A stretch of DNA of 64,000 nt. Source: Escherichia coli (GTDB lineage: Bacteria > Pseudomonadota > Gammaproteobacteria > Enterobacterales > Enterobacteriaceae). Under the pieces are notes generated by a model. It worked only from the letters and a program-made list of their open reading frames with translations, was not told where the DNA came from and did not search any database. The stretch lies in the NCBI RefSeq assembly GCF_003334815.1, contig NZ_QOWO01000001.1. One strand, written 5' to 3'. This document shows, one piece after another, positions 49,934 to 50,407 of this stretch (positions are counted from its first letter, which is position 1; every line of letters begins with the position of its first letter). Position numbers and translations under genes: made by a program.

Positions 49934-50113
49934 TCAGCGCTGTACTGGCTGGCGGCTTTCAAGCCACGCCATAACATCTTTGCGCCGCCAGGCCACGCGT
50001 TTTGGCCCTAATTTTATGCAATTAGGAAACGTGCCAGCCTGGATATAGCGCCAGATAGTCATGCGGGATAATGTTGTTAGTGTTGTGACTTGCTTAGCAG
50101 TCAGTAATTCCAT
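49934..50113 (-). CDS. AlpA-family (excisionase-like, MerR-type HTH) regulator, 59 aa
   Basis: manual translation: MELLTAKQVTTLTTLSRMTIWRYIQAGTFPNCIKLGPKRVAWRRKDVMAWLESRQPVQR; absent from the ORF track (under 60 aa). Confidence 0.7.
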   Translation of the reverse strand: MELLTAKQVTTLTTLSRMTIWRYIQAGTFPNCIKLGPKRVAWRRKDVMAWLESRQPVQR

Positions 50114-50407
50114 CTTACGGCCCTCAAAACATGGCCGGTGGATATGTGGTCTGTAATGATTTATGATTATGTTGCGTTAACAAAGAACGCGACCATTACA
50201 GCCTTCACCGGCTTTTTGGTATTAAGGGGTTCGGTTTTCTGTTTGGCGACGTGAACCGATCCCCGCCTTATTCAAGCCCTCAGTTCTGCTGGGGGCTTTT
50301 TATTACTACATGACAATAATACTCAAATTGTATCAGCAGTAAATACCCTTTAAATTCATAAACTTAACTGCAAATAACGCTACATAACTCTATATAATCA
50401 TCAATTT

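Follow-up and report, generated by a model that had tools for sequence, protein, structure and literature searches.

The closest described systems are two kinds of phage satellite that are switched on by an AlpA protein. In Gram-negative phage-inducible chromosomal islands (PICIs) of the EcCICFT073 type, AlpA acts as activator of the island cycle as well as of its own promoter, and its overexpression leads to excision and runaway replication; alpA is induced by helper phages via an unexplained route, and no repressor is known (PMC6092414). In Vibrio, the PICMIs (phage-inducible chromosomal minimalist islands) lie at the end of fis, bounded by 17-bp repeats, with int, alpA and prim as their core; expression of alpA is both necessary and sufficient for excision of the fis-integrating members, and the route of induction by the helper is again unexplained (PMC10803314). 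The picture given by these papers is thus of Gram-negative satellites without a recognisable repressor, in which the path from helper to alpA is unaccounted for (PMC6092414, PMC10803314). Here we describe a satellite island in a 64,000-nucleotide stretch of the Escherichia coli chromosome (the ‘window’) and, in particular, the spacer between its integrase gene (int) and alpA, which we suggest may offer a specific candidate for the negative control that has been missing in a fis-integrating enterobacterial family.

The island is a block between fis and yhdJ that is not found in the K-12-type gene order; it is integrated in the 3' end of fis, measures 9346 bp (~9.35 kb) between its repeats and has ~12 annotated genes. 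It is a PICI/PICMI-like phage satellite, so called for its int-alpA-primase core and the 17-bp repeats that bound it at the fis 3' end; we do not file it as a member of either family. With the PICMIs (Barcia-Cruz et al. 2024, PMC10803314) it has in common the fis 3' end, the 17-bp repeats and the int/alpA/primase set; PICMIs, however, are Vibrionaceae islands of ~6 kb and six genes, whereas this one is enterobacterial and larger. Its primase is VapE-like (for homologous primases, the precomputed Pfam matches are to PF05272 VapE-like_dom only), whereas the PICMI detection model is built on DUF3987/DUF5906 (PF13148, PF19263), which the primase here does not match; the island also has a truncated tape-measure gene, and one variant of it a small terminase gene, and the PICMI paper reports no RNA regulator. 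With the Gram-negative PICIs (EcCICFT073; Fillol-Salom et al. 2018, PMC6092414) it shares int, a co-directional alpA and pri-rep, in the same layout and with a specific att site, at a length slightly under their usual ~10-15 kb.

A preliminary description of this DNA had taken the int-alpA spacer (294 bp) to be an AT-rich control region for alpA whose inverted repeat was a candidate operator for the excision and replication switch. That the spacer controls alpA is very probably correct; the simple protein operator is the part that we would now replace. On balance, and at slightly better than an even chance, we favour the view that the spacer is a conserved antisense-RNA unit lying over the alpA leader, in which the repeat would form an RNA stem, and in which the antisense RNA, together with head-on transcription, would repress alpA. 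The promoter-like and terminator signals, and the hairpins with their compensatory changes, are conserved; that an RNA is produced, that it represses and by which route, we infer from sequence. The unit appears to be undescribed: Rfam, searched over 30000..64000 with gathering thresholds and over 49800..50600 with E<=10, gave nothing above chance level in the spacer, and no paper turned up in a full-text literature search for four pieces of the element, each of 20-25 nt. What would be new is antisense control placed on the master switch of a satellite, as this kind of control is itself familiar and the alpA gene is already annotated.

In composition the spacer is bipartite. Its overall GC content is 39.8%, against 51% for the window, and ‘AT-rich’ is apt for 50306..50407 (26.5% GC) but not for the structured half, 50114..50305, which holds the repeat (46.9% GC). 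The inverted repeat itself is present where it had been placed (Table 1), with an exact 8-bp core of CTGTAATG (50151-50158) and CATTACAG (50194-50201) that one bulged T extends to arms of 11 and 10 nt forming 10 bp. Perfect inverted repeats of at least 8 bp, with loops of up to 60 nt, are common in shuffled sequence (24.6% of 500 dinucleotide-preserving shuffles of 50114..50407), so that the 8-bp repeat proves nothing alone; what makes it significant is solely that related islands conserve it with compensatory changes.

Folding places the arms within an imperfect palindrome of 79 nt (HP1), as its middle stem; HP1 further has a base stem, a one-sided bulge of 12-15 nt and an apical hairpin of the form GCGTT-N7-AACGC (50174..50190), and beyond it lie a second stem-loop (HP2) and a predicted intrinsic terminator (HP3, the hairpin of which spans 50274..50298). 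The region 50100..50330 folds at -81 kcal/mol on the + strand (z -5.9, with 0 of 200 shuffles as good) and at -63.6 kcal/mol on the - strand (z -2.4). HP2 is the more stable on the + strand in five of the six variants folded, and HP3 likewise in most; the stem of HP2 differs between variants, being TCTGG/CCAGA or TCGATT/AATCGG in others.

Nine distinct spacers of this type could be compared: that of the window (seen also in Enterobacter and in metagenomes), those of Cronobacter (L014) and Salmonella (L015), two EC130-like spacers (L002 and L026), those of E. coli 98202 (L013) and Klebsiella (L062), and two from Logan assemblies of public sequencing runs (L060 and L061). Most were gathered via exact-protein look-ups, and L026 via a pattern scan of metagenomes; AlpA identity to the window across these loci runs from 92% down to 64%. 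A scan of genome contigs with AlpA gave one unrelated locus only, and scans of viral contigs with AlpA, the integrase or the DNA motif gave only the same island or chance matches. A covariance model of the predicted RNA (R1) matches the window at 50174..50305 with 136 bits, and the nine homologous spacers with 53-138 bits; elsewhere in the window it has no match, nor has it any among 28 other PICI-type and 78 other AlpA loci.

RNAalifold, applied to eight of the sequences from the 5' hairpin of the predicted RNA to its T-run, yields 27 pairs, nine of them with compensatory changes. When the repeat stem and the apical hairpin are taken together, pairing holds in 88.9% of cells (28-55% with slid partners), three pairs are changed on both sides (T-A to C-G, T-A to G-C and C-G to G-C) and the covariation score is matched by 2 of 500 shuffles; the changes in the repeat arms are the T-A to C-G of L013 and L062 (TGCAATG/CATTGCA) and the T-A to G-C of L015. 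When the two arms of HP1 are set against each other across all nine variants, there are 157 matches and 15 mismatches, the latter all transitions (0 transversions), with eight of the resulting wobbles valid on the + strand and seven on the -. Every variant has a 1-nt bulge, the position of which shifts in nearly each of them. The repeat arms agree in seven variants and are discordant in L060 and L061 (TGCAATG vs CATTACA), a discordance that amounts to C.A on the + strand and G.U in the - strand RNA. Taken together, the arm mismatches and the moving bulge argue for a stem in RNA (or DNA), and are a poor fit to two equivalent half-sites 35-37 bp apart.

It is on these grounds that we consider it unlikely that TGTAATG and CATTACA are half-sites for AlpA, or for some other regulator, that switch the promoter or promoters of the spacer. 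The arms are indeed conserved and co-vary in L013/L062 and L015, as operator halves might; the left arm sits between a -35 and a -10, which is the position that Pseudomonas aeruginosa AlpA binds on its target promoters (PMC7969949), and EcCICFT073 AlpA is known to activate its own promoter region (PMC6092414), such that an AlpA that shuts the + strand promoter bracketed by the arms could explain auto-activation. An operator, however, has no need of a 79-nt palindrome with a base stem and apical hairpin around its two half-sites; the bulge is placed differently in each variant; the discordant arms of L060/L061, which would weaken a symmetric operator, are accommodated by the - strand RNA as a G.U pair; all 15 of the 15 arm mismatches are wobble-preserving transitions (among nine sequences, and hence not independent events); and the 8-bp repeat, by itself, is within chance.

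We turn to the signals on the + strand, where the site at 50139..50167 is the sole promoter-like sequence predicted in 49600..52000 and recurs at the same aligned position in all nine variants; neither strand has another promoter-like site that is common to all of them. Its -35 reads TGGATA, TGGAAA or GTGACA, its spacer is 17 nt throughout, and its -10 reads TATGAT, TAGAAT, TATAGT or TAAAAT (all TAnnnT), lying in every variant exactly 6 nt from the G that opens the apical, or 5', hairpin. In the bulge, a stretch of 15 variable columns, the invariant ones include the T, A and T of -10 positions 1, 2 and 6. At the other end, a + strand hairpin followed by a run of 5-8 Ts is present in 9/9 variants. 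HP3 itself is kept in eight; L013 lacks it through a deletion, with TTCTTTTTG immediately after HP2. The terminator stems differ from one variant to another (AAGCCCTCAG, AAGCCCTCAAC, AAACCCCGG, GAGCCATCGG, GAGCCCTCGG) and contain 0-3 G.U pairs each, all valid on the + strand only and none the opposite way.

Such a pattern bears directly on the suggestion that the hairpins act solely in the alpA mRNA, be it to stabilise it, to serve as RNase sites or to affect its translation, with the + strand promoter- and terminator-like signals arising as by-products of the palindrome. HP1 does form on the - strand, where it is the more stable in the EC130 type, the L060/L061 discordance pairs as G.U on that strand alone, and the 3' arm of HP1, once freed, is able to base-pair in the region of the Shine-Dalgarno sequence and the AUG. 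A by-product would not, however, be expected to keep TAnnnT in four different -10 hexamers at a fixed distance from the hairpin; a T-run, moreover, comes after the last hairpin on the + strand in nine of nine variants and never on the -, and the G.U pairs in HP2 and HP3 are valid on the + strand alone. We therefore regard a purely leader-borne structure as distinctly unlikely.

The antisense RNA that these signals predict, of ~130 nt, is fully complementary to the 5' leader of alpA, from -61 to about -190 relative to the start codon. A small protein encoded on the + strand was considered and rejected: the predicted RNA contains no ATG, and a 38-aa GTG open reading frame (ORF; 50138..50254) starts 5' of the predicted transcription start. 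On the - strand, two weakly supported candidate alpA promoters overlap in the AT-rich half (Table 1); L002 and L026 have TTTACA-17-TAACCT at the aligned position, with a conserved block just upstream. Transcription of alpA is tentatively placed from about 50309-50320, which would give a leader of ~200 nt, and the candidate alpA and antisense promoters are convergent and ~135-145 bp apart.

The - strand was also scanned for terminators: no intrinsic terminator is predicted between int and alpA (50114..50407), and no conserved U-tract was found after the hairpins, HP1 being followed by UUUU, UUU or only UU. This speaks against a scheme in which the hairpins are sense-strand terminators of the alpA leader that are read through by an AlpA-loaded polymerase. 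The scheme has its precedents, in that P. aeruginosa AlpA is a processive antiterminator with a loading site between -35 and -10 (PMC7969949, PMC9371919) and, in a PICI, expression from the alpA promoter region is raised by AlpA itself (PMC6092414). With no - strand terminator predicted in the spacer and no conserved U-tract behind any of the three hairpins, we nevertheless consider it very improbable indeed; a phmmer search with the alpA product against all PDB chains (E<=1), moreover, returned only 8c3t (‘AlpA family phage regulatory protein’, the nearest solved structure, E 9e-6) and 4j2n, neither of which is described within an RNA polymerase complex, and hence no similarity to the solved complexes of AlpA with RNA polymerase.

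Returning to the antisense unit, we propose a model for how it might work. A weak alpA promoter in the AT-rich half would give a structured, ~200-nt leader on the - strand, whilst a constitutive-looking sigma-70 promoter on the + strand would give an RNA running from G50174 to the terminator. As the predicted + strand start falls between the two arms, only the - strand transcript, the alpA leader, would hold both of them, and HP1 is thus best read as a hairpin of that leader; it would be complete there alone, with the antisense promoter embedded in its 5' half on the + strand, and its top would be the complement of the 5' stem-loop of the antisense RNA. The apical loop is the most variable segment of the whole element (AACAAAG, ATCAAAG, ATTAAGG, ATTTATC, CTC, CTG, ATGAACC and ATGAACA), and would fit a ‘kissing-loop’ determinant of specificity, by analogy with the antisense systems CopA/CopT and RNAI/RNAII, in which kissing loops set specificity.

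Antisense RNA and head-on transcription would together hold alpA down, including any read-through from the co-directional int upstream: without a - strand terminator between the two genes, transcription of int could enter alpA, which would supply a rationale for a brake that acts after initiation. Candidate routes are cleavage of the duplex by RNase III, collision or occlusion of polymerases, and effects on leader refolding or stability. Arrival of a helper phage would then tip the balance, and AlpA would drive excision and replication as it does in the relatives. A further route, a translational switch in which the antisense RNA frees the 3' arm of HP1 to hide the ribosome-binding site, is not supported. 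The freed arm can pair with the Shine-Dalgarno/AUG region, as an alternative hairpin in seven variants folded; the predicted accessibility of the site, as taken up below, is unchanged by masking the leader that the antisense RNA covers, which leaves this simplest of translational mechanisms without support.

Cis-encoded antisense RNAs of this general kind include CopA/CopT (plasmid R1), RNA-OUT (IS10), Sar (P22), OOP (lambda) and Anti-Q (pCF10); they are short and structured, arise from a constitutive promoter that lies within the 5' region of their target and is convergent with the promoter of the latter, and have a 5' stem-loop with a variable loop and an intrinsic terminator. The window RNA is predicted to share the opposite-strand promoter, the intrinsic terminator and the compensatory structure; it departs from them in that its overlap covers the leader only and ends 61 nt before the start codon. 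To our knowledge, none of these RNAs controls an AlpA-type gene or a phage satellite. There is, on the other hand, a satellite that is silenced by RNA: phage P4, which is kept silent not by a protein repressor but by a small RNA, CI, that targets the leader of the early operon. The CI RNA, which is cut out of the strand that also carries its target, brings about premature termination via seqA/seqC pairings, whereas the predicted window RNA comes from the opposite strand and has no sequence or Rfam similarity to it.

This leads to a broader idea that we think rather unlikely, namely that the satellite has no protein repressor at all and is kept latent by a constitutive antisense RNA plus head-on transcription, until helper infection removes the RNA, be it that host sigma-70 transcription is shut off or that an RNase or a phage factor acts. 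A phage would then be sensed by the island much as transcription arrest is by hok/sok-type systems, and variants of the apical loop would set immunity types among co-resident satellites. If true, it would answer, for one family, how helper phages switch on alpA. The antisense unit itself, should it hold, would be a second RNA-based latency mechanism in satellites besides the P4 CI RNA, and could explain induction by virulent phages via transcription shut-off; should it fail, the region remains a well-defined structured leader of a switch gene.

Several points weigh against the antisense unit, or limit how far it can be taken. The promoter and terminator are consensus predictions; the -35 matches consensus at four of six positions in most variants, and its conservation has a second possible cause, since it overlaps sequence able to pair with the alpA start region. 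Covariation lends modest support, because the variants are few, closely related and mosaic, with few independent events. HP1 has no consistent strand preference, with the - strand the more stable in the EC130 type, and in seven variants the ribosome-binding site has an unpaired probability of 0.43-0.52 in the free leader and 0.39-0.56 when the antisense-covered part is masked. Neither promoter nor terminator was found on the antisense strand of the 365-bp int-alpA spacer of EcCICFT073 (L058:9161-9525), the AlpA of which is 36% identical to that of the window, and R1 has no match there. In a terminator scan of 18 clusters of AlpA-upstream sequence, a clear antisense terminator was seen only in the family of the window and was absent from 16 others (the window's own type being set aside, and L066, which is of the L013 type, counted in the family); the next-closest AlpA (L067, 51% identity) has a different upstream gene. 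The antisense module is, therefore, not general to AlpA satellites.

Some further observations concern the spacers themselves. The EcCICFT073 spacer has two clusters of short TTGT/GTTG-rich repeats, e.g. cgttgttccattttgttccttgttgttcgtcgttgtgtctcgttgtttcacgttgtcc, which may be binding sites of its AlpA. The top of HP2 is inverted between the near-identical spacers L013 (9584-9621) and L062 (reverse strand of 1163-1515), TTTCAAGTTTTCGCGGACTGAA in one being approximately the reverse complement of TCAGTCCGCGAAAACTTGTAA in the other. Spacers of the Klebsiella type (L060, L061, L062 and L013) carry TGTGC-N10-GCACA, with a variable centre, after the T-run and toward the alpA promoter; this may represent a fourth hairpin or a site for a protein. 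A perfect TATAAT with a poor -35 stands at 50393-50398 (+), 10 nt before the int stop codon and antisense into int; it is kept in L002 and L015 (as TGTATAAT) and not in L014, and could be chance in AT-rich DNA. An attP, ori or pac site was rejected as the identity of the spacer element by position: the element does not extend outside the int-alpA spacer, and the att repeats are located on the far side of int.

Table 1. Features of the satellite island and of its int-alpA spacer, in window positions.
Feature	Position	Strand	Details
AlpA-type satellite island	between fis (ends 42481) and yhdJ (from 51907)	genes mostly -	E. coli chromosome
attL	42465..42481		17-bp direct repeat AATACGGCATGAACTAA; last codons / 3' end of fis
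Truncated tail tape-measure gene	42559..44832	-	fis-proximal island end
VapE-like primase/helicase gene	47972..49660	-	operon with alpA; PHROG match to primase/helicase families
93-aa ORF	49644..49925	-	operon with alpA and primase
alpA	49934..50113 (ATG at 50113)	-	59-aa AlpA-family winged helix-turn-helix regulator / excision factor
alpA Shine-Dalgarno	50121..50125	-	GAGGG, 7 nt upstream of ATG
HP1, 79-nt imperfect palindrome	50134..50212		from folding; base stem GCCGGTGG/TTCACCGGC
Predicted sigma-70 antisense promoter	50139..50167	+	TGGATA-17 nt-TATGAT; inside 5' half of HP1
Left repeat arm, ggtctgtaatg	50148..50158		between -35 and -10 of + strand promoter
Predicted ~130-nt cis-antisense RNA	50174..~50303	+	5' stem-loop 50174-50190, linker, HP2, terminator
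Right repeat arm, cattacagcc	50194..50203		+21..+30 of predicted + strand RNA
HP2 stem-loop	50226..50264	+	GGGGTTCGGTT.../...AACCGATCCCC
HP3, predicted intrinsic terminator	50274..50301	+	11-bp stem, then T-run
AT-rich spacer half	50306..50407		contains conserved block GTAAATACCCTTTAAATTCAT
Candidate alpA promoter	50343..50316	-	TTTACT-16-TATTAT
Candidate alpA promoter	50354..50327	-	TTTAAA-16-TACAAT, extended TG
Tyrosine integrase gene (int)	50408..51643 or ..51715	-	411 aa (RefSeq start) or 435 aa (upstream TTG)
attR	51811..51827		second AATACGGCATGAACTAA copy; perfect repeat, 9346 bp away from attL

The alpA gene is not new, since an identical one is already in RefSeq under the name ‘AlpA family transcriptional regulator’; at 59 aa it had fallen under the 60-aa threshold for display of ORFs. 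Its recognition in the preliminary description, between the integrase and the 93-aa ORF, is borne out by the ORF, Pfam, PHROG and RefSeq alike. The product matches Pfam Phage_AlpA PF05930 (E 3.9e-13, model positions 2-51 of 51), HTH_17 (E 1e-8) and PHROG 66 and 2790, ‘excisionase and transcriptional regulator’, and scores 19.4 bits against TIGR01764 ‘excise’, under the 28.8-bit cut-off. It is a small protein beside a tyrosine integrase, encoded 294 bp downstream of the integrase gene in an island with 17-bp att repeats, and its Shine-Dalgarno sequence is kept as (G/A)AGGG in 9/9 spacer variants. By analogy with its relatives, it probably binds DNA and controls excision or transcription; the test proposed in the preliminary description, that of whether overexpression of AlpA triggers excision, has already proved positive in EcCICFT073 (PMC6092414) and in the fis-integrating PICMIs (PMC10803314).

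An island of ~100% identity is present in 43 of 5426 complete E. coli genomes, and diverged versions occupy the fis site in 21 more. Carriers of the island include E. coli SZQ1 and WCHEC035148, and AR437. In an Enterobacter cloacae complex locus (L018, 971-4117), a remnant consists of int, spacer, alpA and orf93 only, the primase and cargo having been deleted, with fis ~850 bp further on; its spacer differs from that of the window at a few bases, one of them in the apical loop. The tape-measure fragment, of 757 aa (PHROG 28, positions 112-773 of 1228; TIGR01760, E 5e-71), is unaccompanied by other tail genes in the island and is retained in the diverged islands L002 and L013, shortened there by an IS21 insertion; in L013 (1-2212) the insertion adjoining it is ISEc12 (IS21 family). 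The island of E. coli 98202 has an annotated small terminase subunit (L013:4885-5364), and that of the window is without one.

A Gram-negative PICI would also have genes for packaging or interference (terS/rpp, ppi, capsid remodelling); the middle genes of the island have no PHROG or NCBIfam match. The sole gene annotated on the + strand of the island, 47406-47735, is hypothetical (a 109-aa ORF, slightly shorter in RefSeq) and without a family match; it lies between the structural-like genes and the primase module, in a stretch of 36-47% GC. Near the right edge of the window, at 63686-63916 (-), a 5S rRNA gene and a tRNA gene (Rfam matches of 89 and 71 bits) show where an rrn operon ends.

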